Part shown: positions 4,181-41,864 of the stretch, piece by piece
How positions within the stretch are numbered: position 1 is the first letter of the stretch
How the letters are laid out: each line of letters begins with the position of its first letter
From: Escherichia phage vB_EcoM_P8
Sequence record: PV390659.2
DNA: 64,000 nucleotides
Reading direction: 5' to 3' (one strand)
Position numbers and translations under genes: made by a program
Notes under the pieces: generated by a model
Seen by the model: only the letters and a program-made list of their open reading frames with translations
What the model was told of the DNA's origin: nothing
The model's database searches: none

Positions 4181-4666
4181 ATGGAAGCGATTTTGTTTGA
4201 AATGTATATTAGCAGTAATAGTTTGTCGTTTGCTAAAGATATTCCAATTACAGTAGCAGTAATGATTGATAAGGGTTATTGTGACCCAATGTATCTAGTA
4301 GAAAATTTCGTTTCAATGCCAGTTCCAGAAGATGCTGAAATAAAGCTTAAAAAGATTGGTATTATTGAAACTGTACCAAATATTCCGTTTAGAGCAATTG
4401 AAGCATTTACTAAATCCGAATACATTAATGTTAGTGCAGAACAATATAATGATAAACCTTTATCTTTCTATTCGTATGATTCATTATATAGTTGGAAAAT
4501 AGATAAAGGAAATAAATTTATAATTGCGAGTGAAGATGCTTTATCATACTTTATTTCTTCTGTATGGAATAGTTTACATCCAAATTTGCTAAAAATTCAT
4601 GAATTTGATGATGCTCCTACTGTTGTTTTAGGTAAAACAAATGAAAGTTCTGAAGAAAATGTTTGA
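4181..4666 (+). CDS. mrh: hypothetical protein, 161 aa (mrh position and length)
   Basis: ATG with GAGGA SD; length matches T4 Mrh as recalled; assignment is positional. Confidence 0.45.
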
Positions 4667-4844
4667 ATGGTTCAATAGACCAAACTCAATGTACATTGAT
4701 GATGGTTGGGTTGAACAGGCAAATAAAGAAATGCAGAACGAATCAGAAGAATGGATGAAATCAATGATTAGTGCCGAGAAAGAAAAGAAATTAGAACGCT
4801 CAGCGCTTAAATTGATGAGAGACATCTATGGGGATAAATCGTGA
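4641..4844 (+). CDS. hypothetical protein
   Basis: 67 aa ORF overlapping previous gene end. Confidence 0.45.
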
Positions 4845-5726: not shown

Positions 5727-6350
5727 ATGATTATTAATCTCGCAGATGTTGAACAGTTATCTATAAAAGCTGAAAGTGTCGATTTTCAATATGATATGTA
5801 TAAAAAGGTCTGTGAAAAATTTACTGACTTTGAACAGTCAGTTCTTTGGCAGTGTATGGAAGCCAAAAAGAATGAAGCTCTTCATCGGCAGTTGAATAAA
5901 ATCGTTAAAAAGCATTTAACTAAATCGCCGTATCAGCTATATCGTGGTATATCAAAATCGACAAAAGAACTCATTAAAGATTTACAAGTTGGAGAAGTGT
6001 TTTCAACGAACAGAGTAGATTCATTTACTACTAGTTTGCATACAGCGTGTTCTTTTTCTTATGCTGAATATTTCACTGAAATAGTACTTCGCTTAAAAAC
6101 TGATAAAGCTTTTAATTACTCTGACCATATCAGCGATATTATACTTTCTTCTCCTAATACTGAGTTTAAGTATACATATGAAGATACTGATGGATTAGAT
6201 TCAGAACGTACTGATAACTTAATGATGATTGTGCGTGAACAAGAATGGATGATTCCAATTGGAAAGTATAAAATAACTTCTATTTCAAAAGAAAAATTAC
6301 ACGATTCATTTGGAACATTTAAAGTGTATGATATTGAGGTAGTTGAATGA
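5727..6350 (+). CDS. modB: ADP-ribosyltransferase ModB
   Basis: 207 aa from ATG 5727 (GGAGG SD); R-S-ExE ART motifs (YRG, STTS, EQEWMIP); first of tandem pair as in T4. Confidence 0.75.
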   Translation: MIINLADVEQLSIKAESVDFQYDMYKKVCEKFTDFEQSVLWQCMEAKKNEALHRQLNKIVKKHLTKSPYQLYRGISKSTKELIKDLQVGEVFSTNRVDSFTTSLHTACSFSYAEYFTEIVLRLKTDKAFNYSDHISDIILSSPNTEFKYTYEDTDGLDSERTDNLMMIVREQEWMIPIGKYKITSISKEKLHDSFGTFKVYDIEVVE

Positions 6351-19692: not shown

Positions 19693-20022
19693 ATGATTTA
19701 TTGTATGAATATCGGTGATTCCGACATAAAAGAGATTAAACTGCACGGAAATCATCACGCTAATATTGTGTACTGCAATAAATTTGAGTTTGGTCACGAA
19801 AAACTTGGGTTTCTTTACTGTAATGATGTTATAGTCATGGATAAAAAGGAACTCGATGATCTCGACCATGAGTCTTTAGATGAAAATGATCGAATTTATT
19901 ATGGCACTCTTAAAATATATAACGCTTATCTCAGCGGTAAAAAGGAAAGTCTAAATGCAGAAAACGAATCCGGGTTTACAGAGACTATTTCAGATTCCGA
20001 CATTTACCCTATCGAACAATGA
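19693..20022 (+). CDS. hypothetical protein
   Basis: 109 aa; overlaps next ORF by 68 nt. Confidence 0.45.
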   Translation: MIYCMNIGDSDIKEIKLHGNHHANIVYCNKFEFGHEKLGFLYCNDVIVMDKKELDDLDHESLDENDRIYYGTLKIYNAYLSGKKESLNAENESGFTETISDSDIYPIEQ

Positions 20023-20512
20023 TTTGACTAGTGAAATGAAGGTCAAAATTGCTGATACAGCAAGATACTCTTTAAAACAAAATCCAAATCAGGATAAAGC
20101 AGAAGTTATCGAAAGATGCCGTATCGCGGTGTACGCAGAGTTTTTTGTAGCAGATTGGTTAAGCGGGTATGTTAACAAAGGCCAAGAGGATGTTAATGAC
20201 CCGTATACATACGCATGGGATGTATTGGCGCATCCAAGATATTGCGGGCTTCGTGTAGAAGTTAAGACACACCAAACTGACTCACGTTGGATTTCGGTAA
20301 CAACCGGATGCAGCGGAGAGTATCCATACGGTTCTGGAATAAATCTAGGGCCCATTCTGAATCATCAAGTCGCTGACTGTATAATTATATTCAACGCTAA
20401 AGAAATTCATCCAGGTGTCATCCAGTACACTCCGAAGTTCATCGGTGATAGAGAAGACCTTCGTAAGGTTGTAAGAAAAAGCAACTACAACGGATGGTAT
20501 CTTTCCATTTAA
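19955..20512 (+). CDS. denB: endonuclease IV DenB
   Basis: 185 aa equals T4 DenB length; position after rIIB; start uncertain (possible downstream ATG 20035). Confidence 0.65.
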   Translation: MQKTNPGLQRLFQIPTFTLSNNDLTSEMKVKIADTARYSLKQNPNQDKAEVIERCRIAVYAEFFVADWLSGYVNKGQEDVNDPYTYAWDVLAHPRYCGLRVEVKTHQTDSRWISVTTGCSGEYPYGSGINLGPILNHQVADCIIIFNAKEIHPGVIQYTPKFIGDREDLRKVVRKSNYNGWYLSI

Positions 20513-20528
20513 AAATTTTCACAAAACG

Positions 20529-20558
20529 GTTTACATACCACAAGGACTGTGGTACTAT
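20529..20558 (+). promoter_or_regulatory. T4-type early promoter (repeated cassette)
   Basis: GTTTAC, 18-nt spacer, TACTAT; cassette CACAAAACGGTTTACA...GGTACTATACAACTATC recurs at 24171 and 40845. Confidence 0.55.
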
Positions 20559-20585
20559 ACAACTATCAGCTACGGAGGAGTAAAA

Positions 20586-20849
20586 ATGAAATTTAAATTT
20601 TATTACGCTAAACATAAAATAACTGATGAGTTTGTGTCAGTTGAATATTCTAGCGATGATGAAGGTATGATTTATACTCGCTTAGGGTTATCGCGCTGGG
20701 AGTCTGATACGCCTTATTTTTCAACTCCCGAAGAAATTACACGTTTAGTTAATGGTCATATGAATGACCACTGGGATGTAATTCTTTCAGATAGTCTTAA
20801 AGCAGCTATTAATAGTAATGAAATGAAAATCGCTGAGATTGAACTATGA
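20586..20849 (+). CDS. hypothetical protein
   Basis: 87 aa after early promoter. Confidence 0.5.
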   Translation: MKFKFYYAKHKITDEFVSVEYSSDDEGMIYTRLGLSRWESDTPYFSTPEEITRLVNGHMNDHWDVILSDSLKAAINSNEMKIAEIEL

Positions 20850-20932
20850 GTTCATTATGGTGGTGTTTTGTTTGGTTAATTAGTATTCCATTAATTTGTT
20901 TAACATTTACTTTTGTGATGAGGTTATTATGA
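20846..20932 (+). CDS. tiny hydrophobic peptide
   Basis: 28 codons, ATGA-coupled, one TM-like segment. Confidence 0.3.
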   Translation: MSSLWWCFVWLISIPLICLTFTFVMRLL

Positions 20933-21027
20933 AAATTTTGAATTCTGTACTTATTGCTTGTGCGTGGTGGGTTGCACAAGTTTCGGCAGTAGTGATTGGT
21001 ATTCACATTTATTACGAATATTTTTAA
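20929..21027 (+). CDS. tiny hydrophobic peptide
   Basis: 32 codons, ATGA-coupled. Confidence 0.3.
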   Translation: MKILNSVLIACAWWVAQVSAVVIGIHIYYEYF

Positions 21028-21034
21028 AAAAGTT

Positions 21035-21064
21035 GTTTACAAGACTGTTCCTCTGTGGTATTAT
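21035..21064 (+). promoter_or_regulatory. T4-type early promoter within stem-loop
   Basis: GTTTAC, 18-nt spacer, TATTAT; flanked by CTGTTCCTC/GAGGAACAG 9-bp inverted repeat. Confidence 0.55.
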
Positions 21065-21092
21065 TACCCTATCAACTACGGAGGAACAGAAA

Positions 21093-21206
21093 ATGAAAAA
21101 GATTGTTAAAGCTATATGGAATGTAGTTATAATACTAGTAGTTTTGAGTATATTCCCAATCGTTTTAATGATTGATGTATTAAACGCTTACTTTGGATTT
21201 ATGTGA
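21093..21206 (+). CDS. small membrane peptide
   Basis: 37 aa; GGAGGAACAG SD after promoter; longer track ORF uses upstream non-ATG start. Confidence 0.4.
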   Translation: MKKIVKAIWNVVIILVVLSIFPIVLMIDVLNAYFGFM

Positions 21207-21213
21207 GGAAAAT

Positions 21214-21411
21214 ATGAAGCGTAAACGTAGTGCTTTTACATTTATGGAATGGTTTTTCGATAATATTTTTCCAGCTTTATTCATTTTCATGCTGATTTTC
21301 GCCTTGGGTTCAGTTGTGGTTGGAATCTATTTGATGGCGGTTGTCGGAATGGACATTCATCAAAATGGCTTAAAATCTGTGGTTGAAACAATTTGGAATG
21401 GTGTAAAATGA
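21214..21411 (+). CDS. small membrane protein
   Basis: 65 aa from ATG with GAGGAAAAT SD; 2 TM-like segments. Confidence 0.45.
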   Translation: MKRKRSAFTFMEWFFDNIFPALFIFMLIFALGSVVVGIYLMAVVGMDIHQNGLKSVVETIWNGVK

Positions 21412-21518
21412 TGAATTTGCTGAGTGGTTGGTTTTATATTCTTATGTTTTACATTGGTGCAAATTTCCCATACTGGATGGGATGGTCAACAACTGCGTTT
21501 GGATTTTATACTCCTTGA
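21408..21518 (+). CDS. tiny hydrophobic peptide
   Basis: 36 codons, ATGA-coupled. Confidence 0.3.
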   Translation: MMNLLSGWFYILMFYIGANFPYWMGWSTTAFGFYTP

Positions 21519-21526
21519 GGTGAATT

Positions 21527-21742
21527 ATGAAAATTTTTAAAGATGTAAAGGTCGGTGAAATTTTCTGTTTAGATAATGGTGATCAGTTAATTCGTATTTC
21601 ACCTCTTAAAAGCACTAGCGAGAAAATGACAGTTAACGCTACTTTAGCAAATAACAGTAATGAACGTTTCTGTATTGAAAATGATACTGAAACTTATACC
21701 GTAGAAGAGTTCTGGGAATTGAGCGTCGACTGCGACGATTAA
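21527..21742 (+). CDS. hypothetical protein
   Basis: 71 aa. Confidence 0.5.
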   Translation: MKIFKDVKVGEIFCLDNGDQLIRISPLKSTSEKMTVNATLANNSNERFCIENDTETYTVEEFWELSVDCDD

Positions 21743-21801
21743 TTTATCGGCCGTGTGTATTCATGCGGCCTTGGAGTAGAAAATAATTAGAGGAAAATAA
21801 C

Positions 21802-22257
21802 ATGAAATATATGACTGTTACTGATTTGAATAATGCAGGCGCAACTGTTATTGGTACAATCAAGGGCGGTGAATGGGTTTTTGGAACTCCACATAAAGAC
21901 ATTTTGTCTAACCCTGGATTTTACTTTTTAGTAAGCAAATTTGGTGGTCCATTTGATAGTCCGTGTGTATCTGCGCGATTTTATGTAGGTAATCAGCGTT
22001 CTAAGCAAGGATTCAGTGCAGTTCTAAGTCATATTCGCCAGCGTCGATCTCAGCTTGCGCGTACTATTGCAAATAACAATGTTCCATACACGGTATTTTA
22101 TCTACCTGCTTCTAAGATGAAACCTCTGACGACGGGATTTGGAAAAGGTCAGTTAGCTTTAGCGTTTACTCGTAATCATCATTCTGAGTATCAAACGCTT
22201 GAAGAAATGAATCGTCTGTTGGCTGATAACTTTAAATTTGTTTTGCAGGCATACTAA
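21802..22257 (+). CDS. ndd: nucleoid disruption protein Ndd
   Basis: 151 aa [23 protein letters not shown]... matches T4 Ndd as recalled. Confidence 0.8.
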
Positions 22258-22337
22258 TGAGTAATTTCCATAACGAACATGTAATGCAGTTCTATCGTAA
22301 CAATCTTAAAACTAAAGGCGTCTTCGGACGCCAGTGA
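22257..22337 (+). CDS. stp: Stp peptide (anti-restriction; activator of PrrC anticodon nuclease in T4)
   Basis: 26 aa [26 protein letters not shown] identical to recalled T4 Stp; TAATG-coupled to ndd. Confidence 0.85.
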
Positions 22338-22344
22338 GGAAAAT

Positions 22345-22503
22345 ATGAATATTGCAAAACTATTAGGAGTTATTTCATTTATTTGTTGGATAGTAGCATG
22401 TGTTTTAACTATCTGTATCGATGCTAGCAGTGTGTTTTCACAAGCTTTAGCTCAGGGTATGTGTGCATATTTAACATTTGTGTTGTTATCTACCAATGAT
22501 TAA
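22345..22503 (+). CDS. ac: small membrane protein Ac (acridine sensitivity)
   Basis: 52 aa hydrophobic, position between stp and 52. Confidence 0.6.
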   Translation: MNIAKLLGVISFICWIVACVLTICIDASSVFSQALAQGMCAYLTFVLLSTND

Positions 22504-22637
22504 GAAAATCTTGGGCTATTCATTAGCCCTTGCTACTTTATTGGTAGCACTATATTATGGAGTAATGTTCGGATTAATTCAAGTCGTGCTTTTCATTTCT
22601 GATGTTATTATGGCACTACATTCACTAGTATGGTAAA
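22497..22637 (+). CDS. small membrane peptide (52.1 position)
   Basis: 46 codons, overlaps ac end. Confidence 0.35.
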
Positions 22638-22640
22638 TTT

Positions 22641-23969
22641 ATGCAACTGAATAATCGCGATTTAAAAAGTATCATTGATAATGAAGCATTGGCTTATGCT
22701 ATGTACACGGTTGAAAATCGTGCTATTCCAAATATGATTGATGGATTTAAGCCAGTTCAACGGTTTGTTATTGCTCGAGCCCTTGATTTAGCACGAGGAA
22801 ATAAAGATAAGTTTCACAAACTTGCTTCTATTGCAGGTGGTGTAGCTGACCTCGGATATCATCATGGTGAAAACTCTGCACAAGATGCGGGGGCTTTGAT
22901 GGCTAACACTTGGAATAATAACTTTCCTTTGTTAGATGGTCAAGGAAACTTTGGTTCTCGTACCGTTCAAAAAGCAGCGGCAAGTCGTTATATTTTTGCT
23001 CGTGTAAGTAAAAATTTCTATAGCGTATATAAAGATACTGAATATGCTCCGGTACATCAAGATAAAGAACACATTCCGCCTGCTTTCTATTTGCCTATTA
23101 TTCCTACTGTTCTTCTTAATGGTGTTTCCGGTATTGCAACTGGTTATGCAACTTACATTCTTCCTCATAGTGTTTCTTCTGTCAAGAAAGCTGTACTACA
23201 AGCTCTTCAAGGAAAGAAAGTAACTAAACCGAAGGTAGAATTCCCAGAATTTCGTGGTGAAGTCGTTGAAATTGACGGTCAATATGAAATTCGTGGAACG
23301 TACAAGTTTACTTCACGAACTCAAATGCATATCACTGAGATTCCGTATAAGTATGATCGTGAAACTTATGTGAGTAAAATCTTAGACCCGCTTGAAGATA
23401 AAGGCTTCATTACGTGGGATGATGCTTGTGGTGAGCATGGTTTTGGCTTTAAAATTAAATTCCGCAAAGAATACTCTTTGAGCAATAACGAAGAAGAACG
23501 CCATGCAAAAATTATGAAAGACTTTGGGTTGATTGAGCGTCGTTCCCAAAATATTACAGTCATCAACGAGAAAGGAAAGCTACAAGTTTACGATAACGTA
23601 GTTGATTTAATCAAAGACTTCGTTGAAGTTCGTAAAACTTATGTCCAAAAACGAATTGATAACAAAATCAAAGAAACTGAATCAGCATTTCGTTTAGCCT
23701 TTGCCAAGGCACATTTCATTAAGAAAGTAATTTCAGGTGAAATTGTTGTGCAAGGTAAAACTCGCAAAGAACTGACCGAAGAACTTTCTAAAATTGATAT
23801 GTATTCTTCTTATGTTGATAAACTAGTTGGAATGAATATTTTTCATATGACTTCCGACGAAGCAAAGAAACTTGCTGAAGAAGCTAAAGCTAAAAAAGAA
23901 GAAAACGAATATTGGAAAACTACTGATGTAGTTACAGAATACACCAAAGATTTAGAGGAAATCAAATGA
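22641..23969 (+). CDS. 52: DNA topoisomerase II medium subunit gp52 (GyrA-like)
   Basis: 442 aa; MQLNNRDLKSIIDNEALAYAMYTVENRAIP... matches T4 gp52. Confidence 0.95.
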   Translation: MQLNNRDLKSIIDNEALAYAMYTVENRAIPNMIDGFKPVQRFVIARALDLARGNKDKFHKLASIAGGVADLGYHHGENSAQDAGALMANTWNNNFPLLDGQGNFGSRTVQKAAASRYIFARVSKNFYSVYKDTEYAPVHQDKEHIPPAFYLPIIPTVLLNGVSGIATGYATYILPHSVSSVKKAVLQALQGKKVTKPKVEFPEFRGEVVEIDGQYEIRGTYKFTSRTQMHITEIPYKYDRETYVSKILDPLEDKGFITWDDACGEHGFGFKIKFRKEYSLSNNEEERHAKIMKDFGLIERRSQNITVINEKGKLQVYDNVVDLIKDFVEVRKTYVQKRIDNKIKETESAFRLAFAKAHFIKKVISGEIVVQGKTRKELTEELSKIDMYSSYVDKLVGMNIFHMTSDEAKKLAEEAKAKKEENEYWKTTDVVTEYTKDLEEIK

Positions 23970-24115
23970 GTCCATTCATAGGTATTACAAGCGCGGCATT
24001 AGTATCTGGTAGCATTTTACTGGCGGGTTTAGGTGTTGTTCCAGCCGTAGCAGGAGGTCTTCTTGCGTTCGGCATTCAACGTGTTATCATGACAGTTATC
24101 ACAGTCATGCAGTAA
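23966..24115 (+). CDS. small membrane peptide
   Basis: 49 aa, ATGA-coupled to 52, followed by terminator. Confidence 0.4.
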   Translation: MSPFIGITSAALVSGSILLAGLGVVPAVAGGLLAFGIQRVIMTVITVMQ

Positions 24116-24120
24116 TTTTA

Positions 24121-24150
24121 GGGAGAGCCTCGGCTCTCCCTTTTTATTTT
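24121..24150 (+). terminator. rho-independent terminator after gene 52 block
   Basis: GGGAGAGCC/GGCTCTCCC stem followed by TTTTTATTTT. Confidence 0.7.
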
Positions 24151-24170
24151 AAAATTTTTTTCACAAAACG

Positions 24171-24200
24171 GTTTACAACCAAAGCATACTGTGGTACTAT
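24171..24200 (+). promoter_or_regulatory. T4-type early promoter upstream of motA
   Basis: GTTTAC, 18-nt spacer, TACTAT. Confidence 0.55.
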
Positions 24201-24241
24201 ACAACTATCAACTACTGATACAGAATTACGGAGATTAGAAA

Positions 24242-24877
24242 ATGTCTAAAGTAACTTACATCATCAAAGCTTCTAACGATGTTCTGAATGAAAAAACTGC
24301 TGCGATTTTAATTACCATTGCTAAGAAAGATTTCATTACAGCTGCAGAAGTTCGTGAGGTGCATCCAGATTTAGGTAATGCAGTAGTTAATAGTAATATT
24401 GGGGTATTGATTAAAAAAGGCCTGGTAGAGAAATCGGGTGATGGATTAATCATTACTGGTGAAGCTCAGGATATTATTTCAAATGCAGCAACTTTATACG
24501 CACAGGAAAATGCTCCGGAACTGCTGAAAAAACGAGCAACTCGTAAAGCTCGCGAGATTACTTCTGATATGGAAGAAGATAAAGACTTCATGCTAAAACT
24601 TTTAGATGAAAATGGATTTGTTCTTAAAAAGGTTGAAACTTATCGTAGTAACTATCTTGCTATTTTAGAAAAACGCACCCACGGAATTCGTAATTTTGAA
24701 ATTAATAACAATGGAAATATGCGAATTTTTGGATACAAAATGATGGAACATCATATTCAGAAATTTACTGACATTGGTATGTCATGTAAAATCGCTAAAA
24801 ACGGTAATGTGTATCTTGACATTAAACGCTCAGCAGAAAACATTGAAGCTGTAATCGCCGTAGCATCTGAACTGTGA
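24242..24877 (+). CDS. motA: middle transcription activator MotA
   Basis: 211 aa MSKVTYIIKASNDVLNEKTAAILITIAKKDFITAAE... matches T4 MotA. Confidence 0.9.
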   Translation: MSKVTYIIKASNDVLNEKTAAILITIAKKDFITAAEVREVHPDLGNAVVNSNIGVLIKKGLVEKSGDGLIITGEAQDIISNAATLYAQENAPELLKKRATRKAREITSDMEEDKDFMLKLLDENGFVLKKVETYRSNYLAILEKRTHGIRNFEINNNGNMRIFGYKMMEHHIQKFTDIGMSCKIAKNGNVYLDIKRSAENIEAVIAVASEL

Positions 24878-41180: not shown

Positions 41181-41567
41181 ATGGAAATTGGCAAAAAATA
41201 TGAGTTAAATCCACATCGTATTAAATCTTTCATTGATATTAGTTCATCAAATGCTAATATGGTCGGCATCATTCAAGAAAATGGTGGTTGGTTTGAAGTT
41301 AAATCAATATCAAGTTTAGATGGCTTTGATTATGTAACTGAAATCATTTGTGCTAATGGCGAAATCTATAATGATGATGGTATGGGTGATGATTATTTTG
41401 AACTTAGTGAAGAAGAGTTTTACTGTTTCCGCGAGTATAAAGAACCAACTTCTGAAGAAGATGAAGTCGAAGATAAGATTTCTGGCGTAACAAAAATTCA
41501 CTGCATTGTAGACGAAAACAATGTAGATGAAATCATTGAACTTTTGCGAAAAACTTTCAAAAAGTAG
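41181..41567 (+). CDS. hypothetical acidic protein
   Basis: 128 aa from ATG 41181 (GAGGA SD); alternative start 41166. Confidence 0.5.
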   Translation: MEIGKKYELNPHRIKSFIDISSSNANMVGIIQENGGWFEVKSISSLDGFDYVTEIICANGEIYNDDGMGDDYFELSEEEFYCFREYKEPTSEEDEVEDKISGVTKIHCIVDENNVDEIIELLRKTFKK

Positions 41568-41596
41568 TTTACAGAAGGGTAGTAGTGTGATACTAT
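41567..41596 (+). promoter_or_regulatory. T4-type early promoter
   Basis: GTTTAC, 18-nt spacer, TACTAT. Confidence 0.5.
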
Positions 41597-41621
41597 TACC
41601 CTATCAACTAAGGAGAATAAA

Positions 41622-41864
41622 ATGAGATTACAACGTCAGAGCATTAAAGATTCAGAAGTTAGAGGTAAATGGTATTTTAATATCATCGGTAAAGATTCTG
41701 AACTTGTTGAAAAAGCTGAACGTCTTTTGCGTGATATGGGATGGGAAGATGAATGTGATGGATGCCCTCTTTATGAGGATGGAGAAAGCGCAGGATTCTG
41801 GATTTACCATTCTGACGTTGAACAGTTTAAAGCTGATTGGAAAATTGTGAAAAAGTCTGTTTGA
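41622..41864 (+). CDS. hypothetical protein
   Basis: 80 aa with TAAGGAGAAT SD after promoter. Confidence 0.5.
   Translation: MRLQRQSIKDSEVRGKWYFNIIGKDSELVEKAERLLRDMGWEDECDGCPLYEDGESAGFWIYHSDVEQFKADWKIVKKSV

Follow-up and report, generated by a model that had tools for sequence, protein, structure and literature searches.

Small hydrophobic peptide genes of the T4 denB-motA region in Escherichia phage vB_EcoM_P8: probable early membrane accessory factors

A group of small membrane-peptide genes between denB and motA, including the ndd.x series, ac, 52.1 and motA.1, has been annotated in bacteriophage T4 since the 1990s. For ac, a genetic phenotype was described in T4 and T2: infection by phage with wild-type ac is sensitive to acridine, and resistance follows when the gene is lost or carries a G38R substitution (bioRxiv 10.1101/2025.06.30.662393). 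Expression of Ac in E. coli sensitized the cells to acriflavine and ampicillin with a loss of viability, and the authors proposed that Ac blocks the AcrAB-TolC pump (bioRxiv 10.1101/2025.06.30.662393; repeated in PMC13250531). Small early genes between repeated early-promoter cassettes are found in the PeSL (promoter-early stem-loop) cassettes of T4-like hyperplastic regions (Arbiol 2010, PMC2839356; Comeau 2014, PMC4122927). In phage PST, ndd.4/.5 were swapped for other open reading frames (ORFs) by recombination at promoter cassettes (PMC4122927 Fig. 6A), and turnover between genera at this locus is already published. Here we analysed a 64,000-nt stretch of DNA from Escherichia phage vB_EcoM_P8 (sequence record PV390659.2), referred to as the window, in which tiny hydrophobic ORFs lie between positions 20846 and 24115. 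The feature is a known one, namely the annotated T4 genes for small membrane peptides, and the ORFs very probably encode real, early-expressed and translationally linked inner-membrane peptides that serve as accessory factors in host takeover.

The region was collinear with T4 (NC_000866) in the order denB, ndd.6, ndd.5, ndd.4, ndd.3, ndd.2a, ndd.2, ndd.1, ndd, stp, ac, 52.1, 52, motA.1 and motA, with about 92% column identity, gaps included, from denB to motA and 93.4-98.6% DNA identity for the individual ORFs. The position, order, strand and stop/start junctions were those of the T4 set (T4p263, T4p265-266 and T4p270-275). Judged by sequence, the eight ORFs are the orthologues of T4 ndd.6, ndd.5, ndd.4, ndd.3 plus ndd.2a, ndd.2, ac, 52.1 and motA.1. 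The initial annotation, made from the sequence alone, had described them as arranged like the T4 ndd.x and ac set; the base-for-base alignment turned this likeness into identity of the genes. The window differed from the T4 reference in having an intact gene for 65 amino acids (aa) where T4 has the two fragments ndd.3 (26 aa) and ndd.2a (40 aa), in lacking the upstream ATG of the 42-aa T4 ndd.4, in one additional Thr in Ac, and in an 87-aa gene (orf87) before ndd.6 where T4 has only 8 codons. The window comes from a Tequatrovirus, and 485 phage records covered at least 80% of 20400-24300. All of this interval (3901/3901 bases) aligned to Escherichia phage vB_EcoM_BMB16 at 100.0% identity as rounded, and a direct comparison with BMB16 revealed one mismatch in 6.9 kb, at 21314. 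This C to T change relative to BMB16 replaces Ala34 with Val in the 65-aa protein. The allele commonly found at this position is Val (T4 strain 147, ESh28, VIPECOOM01), so the phage is a very close relative of BMB16 and not BMB16 itself.

Table 1. Positions in the window of the eight small ORFs and of the neighbouring genes and signals (KD, Kyte-Doolittle hydropathy; TM, transmembrane)
Feature	Position	Strand	Description
ndd.6 orthologue	20846-20932	+	28 aa, one TM-like segment (residues 7-25)
ndd.5 orthologue	20929-21027	+	32 aa, one TM-like segment, GAGG ribosome-binding site, ATGA overlap with ndd.6
ndd.4 orthologue	21093-21206	+	37 aa, one strong TM segment (KD 3.05), GGAGG ribosome-binding site
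ndd.3/2a single gene	21214-21411	+	65 aa, N-terminal KRKR, one TM segment, C-terminal tail of ~25 aa
ndd.2 orthologue	21408-21518	+	36 aa, hydrophobic, aromatic-rich; ATGA overlap with ndd.3/2a
ac	22345-22503	+	52 aa, acridine sensitivity gene
52.1 orthologue	22496-22636	+	46 aa, two hydrophobic segments
motA.1 orthologue	23966-24115	+	49 aa, hydrophobic, Gly/Ala-rich; ATGA-coupled to the end of gene 52
ndd.1 orthologue	21527-21742	+	71 aa, soluble; ends the first run; outside the eight
orf87	20586-20849	+	87-aa soluble protein, phrog_2390, RB69ORF270c-like; stop overlaps ndd.6 start (ATGA)
T4-type early promoter-like site	20530-20558	+	TTTACA, 17-nt spacer, TG-extended TACTAT; before orf87-ndd.6-ndd.5
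T4-type early promoter-like site	21036-21064	+	TTTACA, 17-nt spacer, TG-extended TATTAT; before ndd.4 to ndd.1
motA early promoter match, TG-extended	24172-24200	+	consensus scan
Intrinsic terminator-like site	24120-24141	+	9-bp GC-rich stem and U-run; -18.6 kcal/mol, z -4.7; ends the gene 52-motA.1 unit
Hairpin between ndd.1 and ndd	21749-21770	+	9 bp, -16 kcal/mol, z -3.1; no U-run

The initial annotation had reported at least eight tiny ORFs, mostly below 60 aa, each with one or two TM-like segments and chained by overlapping stops and starts. Exactly eight ATG-initiated ORFs of 28-65 codons were found, all on the (+) strand and seven of them shorter than 60 aa, at the coordinates that it had given except that its end of 22637 for the second run lies one base beyond the 52.1 stop at 22636. 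Hydropathy was calculated with a 19-residue Kyte-Doolittle window and a TM threshold of 1.6. The best window reached 2.2-3.05 in seven ORFs, with two such windows in 52.1, and a TM-like segment in every ORF was thus borne out for all of them except ndd.2. The chaining was found as described, through ATGA or ATGATTAA overlaps or else short gaps that contain GAGG. ATGA overlaps occurred four times, at orf87/ndd.6, ndd.6/ndd.5, ndd.3-2a/ndd.2 and gene 52/motA.1, and ac and 52.1 were joined by an 8-nt ATGATTAA overlap that places the start of 52.1 within the last ac codons. A GAGG-type ribosome-binding site preceded five of the eight starts; the three genes without one (ndd.6, ndd.2 and 52.1) each overlap the preceding gene. 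The same 15-nt string of stop, ribosome-binding site and start, TGAGGAAAATATGAA, with a 7-nt spacer, was found at the ndd.4/ndd.3-2a junction (21204-21218) and at the stp/ac junction (22335-22349). Fewer than 0.1 such matches were expected by chance, and the repeat may be either a scar of recombination or a module for translational coupling that both junctions share.

Hydrophobic mini-ORFs are frequent in this DNA. The whole window contained 36 ATG-ORFs of 25-70 aa with a TM-like window on the (+) strand and 30 on the (-) strand, mostly out of frame in large genes, and one example is found at 23044-23223 within gene 52. Such ORFs are a compositional by-product of an AT-rich genome and should be taken for genes only where synteny or conservation supports them. 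Hydrophobicity alone is insufficient, and the eight ORFs are regarded as real because of their tiling, their ribosome-binding sites and their conservation. The tiling was compared with 2000 dinucleotide-preserving shuffles of 20846-21518, with ORFs counted from 25 aa up. The (+) strand of the real sequence held five ORFs, four of them hydrophobic, which covered 89% of the region, compared to shuffle means of 2.2 ORFs, 0.75 hydrophobic ORFs and 35% coverage. None of the 2000 shuffles matched the coverage, and four or more hydrophobic ORFs appeared in 0.15% of them. The minus strand of the same interval had a single ORF, which was not hydrophobic.

Codon sites were counted in 7-10 sequences per gene, from those Tequatrovirus genomes whose alignment was full-length and gap-free. 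No stop was found in any of the eight frames. When the ORFs were pooled, the 103 variable sites were distributed 26/9/68 over codon positions 1/2/3, and the site-wise ratio of non-synonymous to synonymous polymorphism (pN/pS) ranged from 0.00 in ac to 0.32 in ndd.4. The ac gene showed seven synonymous and zero non-synonymous changes among eight genomes. The variable sites of the 65-aa gene fell 2/1/18 by codon position with a pN/pS of 0.06, those of ndd.5 fell 2/1/9 with a pN/pS of 0.09, and ndd.6 had a pN/pS of 0.17 among 10 genomes. Judged from this pattern of substitutions together with the family matches below, the eight ORFs are genuine protein-coding genes.

A tblastn search of 50,697 phage genomes was performed with six of the peptides, all but ndd.5 and ndd.6, and matched 812 records for 52.1, 595 for ndd.4, 518 for ndd.2, 494 for the 65-aa protein, 492 for motA.1 and 462 for ac, nearly all of them full-length and in a single frame. 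Each of the eight peptides had a full-length match to a PHROG family: phrog_8851 for ndd.6 (E 3e-17), phrog_5011 for ndd.5 (E 4e-26), phrog_3098 for ndd.4, phrog_2401 for the 65-aa gene, phrog_4135 for ndd.2, phrog_2501 for ac, phrog_3595 for 52.1 and phrog_3487 for motA.1, with PHROG and Pfam E values between 1e-17 and 1e-31. In Pfam, the 65-aa protein belonged to DUF7248 (ndd.2a-like; E 1.4e-20, 73.4 bits against a cutoff of 27, residues 5-63 on model positions 3-57 of 58) and 52.1 to DUF7396 (gp52.1-like; E 3.5e-23, 81.9 bits against a cutoff of 27, residues 1-46 on model positions 1-46 of 46). Pfam returned nothing for the other six peptides even at E ≤ 1, and none of the peptides matched a toxin- or holin-like Pfam family at that level. 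The two DUFs and the eight PHROGs carry no assigned function, and such labels as 'outer membrane protein' and 'periplasmic protein' are carried over from old predictions made for T4.

The initial annotation had also stated that the number, length and sequence of these peptides are what varies between phages. This held between genera. Within Tequatrovirus, each peptide searched was found in about 460-600 genomes, mostly with at least 90% protein identity. Because the set is near-invariant there, the window carries the standard Tequatrovirus set and not a phage-specific one. Phage RB69 retains ndd.6, ac (27% identical) and 52.1, lacks motA.1, and has an extra, unrelated hydrophobic ORF of 36 aa; its ndd.6 homologue is unannotated and shares 15 of 28 residues. 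Phage SP18 retains ndd.4, stp, 52.1 and the DUF7248 protein (37% identical). Two of its slots are filled by unrelated hydrophobic ORFs, one of 45 aa in place of ac and one of 32 aa, ATGA-coupled to gene 52, in place of motA.1. Hydropathy peaked at 2.68 and 2.80 in the SP18 pair, and at 1.56 the RB69 ORF narrowly missed the threshold of 1.6. Hydrophobic replacements in the same slots point to selection for the type of peptide and not for translation alone. The most widely found peptide was 52.1, whose records include phages of Klebsiella, Enterobacter and Kosakonia, whereas all 492 motA.1 records came from enterobacterial T4-type phages. The SP18 copy of 52.1 (4606-4746 of the compared segment) was identical at 41 of 46 residues (89% in protein and 87% in DNA), compared to 70% and 69% for the adjacent gp52, which suggests either a recent exchange or an extra constraint at the DNA level. 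In its observation the initial annotation was correct, and in its interpretation essentially so.

The Ac protein of the window is T4 Ac with an extra Thr codon, three codons ahead of the stop; at the DNA level, this 3-bp indel and two substitutions were the only differences from T4 ac. Gly38 is present, and an Ac variant with the Thr insertion, as in phage PP01, was reported to retain the phenotype (bioRxiv 10.1101/2025.06.30.662393). Ac was at least 99% identical in protein in 329 of its 462 records, with DNA about 96-97% identical. Its proposed target, AcrAB-TolC, is shared with the E. coli protein AcrZ (49 aa), which binds AcrB and resembles Ac in size and in having a single hydrophobic helix; the effect of AcrZ on the pump is modulation, and the effect proposed for Ac is a block.

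Published T4 data bear on the need for these genes. A re-created GT7-like deletion of 165,257-168,510, which removes 12 whole genes and parts of 52.1 and rIIB, is viable (PMC9712115), and so is the sa-delta-9 deletion from 52.1 to denB, with half the normal yield (PMC6071114). The viable deletions cover seven of the eight genes, and motA.1 lies outside them. In a CRISPRi-ART screen, motA.1, 52.1, ac, stp, ndd and ndd.1 to ndd.6 were scored 'Not Fit' and gene 52 was scored 'Fit' (PMC11879866). All eight genes are dispensable in the laboratory. The sa-delta-9 interval is nevertheless required for the T4-induced stimulation of phosphatidylglycerol synthesis (PMC6071114), and the region thus carries two unexplained phenotypes, this stimulation and the sensitization to acridine.

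The signals around the ORFs were compatible with early expression. All of these genes were classed as early by T4 RNA-seq (PMC9697503 Table S2), and the Ndd.1 protein was seen early in T4 proteomics (PMC9697503). The promoters and the terminator in Table 1 are consensus matches in the window, from which their function is predicted. A promoter-leader cassette of about 60 nt (GTTTACA ... TGTGGTAYTAT ... CTATCAACTACGGAGGA) was present in four copies, at 20520-20590, 21026-21097, 24162-24246 and 41558-41630. The composite of terminator stem-loop and promoter was found at the motA copy only (24120-24200) and at neither 20530 nor 21036; unlike the full PeSL form, the two copies inside the ndd run consist of promoter and leader without a stem-loop. 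The four copies are likely substrates for PeSL-mediated cassette exchange.

Beyond the orthology, the coding selection, the early-compatible signals and the hydrophobicity described above, we infer membrane insertion, reinitiation and the existence of membrane targets, as follows. Host RNA polymerase would transcribe the genes in the first minutes of infection from the early promoters near 20530 and 21036 and by read-through from upstream, and transcription would stop at the terminator at 24120. Ribosomes would start at the GAGG sites, and ndd.6, ndd.2 and 52.1 would be reached by reinitiation at the ATGA or ATGATTAA stop/start overlaps, so that the members of each run are made together. Hydrophobicity and N-terminal Lys/Arg clusters suggest that the products insert in the host inner membrane as single-pass or hairpin proteins; ndd.4, the 65-aa protein and 52.1 carry such a cluster, which would keep the N terminus inside. 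There the peptides would act on membrane targets as accessory factors of host takeover. The locus would gain and lose such genes through recombination between the repeated promoter cassettes, as published for it.

Several observations weigh against this model of early membrane accessory factors. The ndd.2 peptide has a grand average of hydropathy (GRAVY) of 0.62 and a hydropathy window under 1.6. The coding signal is weaker for ndd.4, 52.1 and ndd.6 because they have only 9-11 substitutions each, which in ndd.4 and 52.1 fall mainly at the first codon position; the RB69 homologue of ndd.6 and the presence of 52.1 at 74-89% protein identity in two other genera offset this for ndd.6 and 52.1. Liquid chromatography-tandem mass spectrometry of T4 proteins detected none of the eight peptides, although it did detect Ndd and Ndd.1 (PMC9697503). 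This silence is weak evidence, because the method should overlook peptides that are so small and hydrophobic and that offer few tryptic sites. Direct evidence for translation or membrane location is limited to the ac genetics; our literature search found no ribosome-profiling study of T4 infection, and a T4 structural-genomics paper excluded peptides below 50 aa and membrane proteins by design. The AcrAB-TolC model is a proposal that rests on expression phenotypes and a predicted structure. Ac did not align with E. coli AcrZ in what was a weak test, and the idea that Ac mimics AcrZ was left without sequence support. The promoters are consensus matches only. Finally, a predicted middle promoter inside 52.1 could add a constraint at the DNA level: the annotation of phage fPS-2 places one in the 3' half of 52.1, and in the window GTGCTTTTCA is followed 12 nt on by TATTAT within the gene, a 6/7 match to the MotA box by eye, while the strict MotA-box pattern (TGCTTNA, 10-14 nt, TANNNT) had no match in 19800-24400.

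The alternative that survives best is that the peptides are condition-specific weapons, which matter only on natural hosts or against particular defences: they might serve in superinfection exclusion, counter host defences, or act as small membrane toxins by depolarising or permeabilising the cell. Genes that are early, non-essential and yet conserved across about 500 Tequatrovirus genomes would fit such a role, and interactions with host systems of defence or exclusion are known for all three neighbours, stp, denB and rIIB. Many immediate-early small genes of T4 are lethal to the host when cloned (PMC6071114), and Ac-expressing cells lose viability with acriflavine or ampicillin (bioRxiv 10.1101/2025.06.30.662393). 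On the other hand, the main text of the HIDEN-SEQ study of conditional essentiality does not name these genes, and the peptides show no similarity to known families beyond DUFs in Pfam and PHROG. We consider this explanation possible but unlikely.

A purely translational role was also weighed, in which the act of translating short frames is selected, so that the mRNA stays covered by ribosomes that are handed on to ndd.1, ndd or gene 52, and the peptides themselves are functionless. The five overlapping junctions and the absence of a good ribosome-binding site of their own at ndd.6, ndd.2 and 52.1 are what such a relay would look like, and in T4 even the 8-codon remnant of orf87 is still ATGA-coupled to ndd.6. 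The lack of a fitness effect upon knockdown of each gene (PMC11879866) and the absence of the peptides from T4 proteomics (PMC9697503) also suit it. Yet the amino acids are under purifying selection, with pN/pS values of 0-0.32 and 68 of the 103 variable sites at the third position, and a single Gly38Arg change in Ac gives resistance (bioRxiv 10.1101/2025.06.30.662393). A pure relay would not call for hydrophobic peptides, but the ORFs that stand at these positions in other genera are hydrophobic too. Moreover, translational knockdown was harmless even with the essential gene 52 downstream (PMC11879866), so coupling is not essential for gene 52. Selection at the amino-acid level and the hydrophobic replacements led us to reject a pure relay, which now appears very improbable.

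That the frames arose by chance, from a T-rich and AT-rich spacer that yields hydrophobic-looking ORFs, is refuted by the conservation pattern and has a negligible probability: most of the small hydrophobic ORFs across the window are certainly spurious and 673 nt of shuffled sequence yields on average 2.2 ORFs of 25 aa or longer, but the real coverage was never reached by shuffling, the frames are intact in the full-length-aligned Tequatrovirus genomes with single-frame tblastn matches in about 460-800 records, and codon-position bias, curated Pfam and PHROG families and the ac genetics all speak for genes.

The question behind these genes is what about eight conserved, early and dispensable membrane peptides do for a T4-type phage. 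One rather doubtful extension of the model is that they form a toolkit of microprotein inhibitors, each docking on a specific host inner-membrane machine, with Ac and AcrAB-TolC as the first example. In that case one of the other peptides could be the T4 factor that redirects phospholipid synthesis to phosphatidylglycerol. The effect maps to a 3.4-kb deletion that covers seven of them, and, as a guess, the 65-aa DUF7248 protein and the widely conserved 52.1 would come first. As a discovery the locus matters little, since the genes have PHROG or Pfam entries and were included in recent genome-wide T4 screens. The practical value of the comparison lies in annotation hygiene, namely a merger of ndd.3 and ndd.2a, the ndd.4 start, the omission of ndd.6, stp and 52.1 from many genomes, and a mislabelled motA.1.

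The split of the 65-aa gene was traced to a single base. The T4 reference has ATGAACGTAAACG at a place where ATGAAGCGTAAACG stands in the window, in T4 strain 147 and in nine other genomes; one G after ATGAA is absent from the reference (window 21214-21411; NC_000866 ~166,432-166,628). The match to the 65-aa protein ran in a single frame in 493 of 494 phage records, the DUF7248 match extends across the ndd.3/ndd.2a boundary, and ndd.3 is a singleton in PHROG. As judged from these alignments, the missing G breaks a single 65-aa gene into T4 'ndd.3' and 'ndd.2a'; it is either a sequencing error or a frameshift specific to the stock. The start of T4 ndd.4 is probably annotated five codons too early: the upstream ATG of the 42-aa version was found only in the two T4 strains, the codon is TAC in at least nine of the 10 other sequences checked (window 21078-21095), and this ATG overlaps the GGAGG ribosome-binding site that serves the start of the conserved 37-aa form.

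The orf87 gene between denB and ndd.6 is present in RB69 and SP18 and missing from T4, IME340, ECP52 and others. The T4 remnant consists of its last eight codons (MKIAEIEL), a mini-ORF with its own GGAG site. Small genes are also omitted from existing annotations. That of BMB16 lacks ndd.6, stp and 52.1, that of RB69 lacks the ndd.6 homologue and the 36-aa hydrophobic ORF (compared segment 2096-2289), and that of SP18 lacks stp, the 45-aa ORF at the ac position, 52.1 and the 32-aa ORF after gene 52 (segment 4356-4746, 6079-6177). In many records motA.1 is labelled 'transcriptional regulator', a label without domain support (no Pfam match; 'unknown function' in PHROG).

A search of Rfam at E ≤ 1 returned only a meaningless SorY match over the terminator, and no Rfam RNA was found in the region. 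A tetraloop hairpin, GGCGUC-UUCG-GACGCC, lies at 22317-22332 within the 3' end of stp. Together with the hairpin between ndd.1 and ndd, it is probably an element of RNA stability or processing rather than a terminator.

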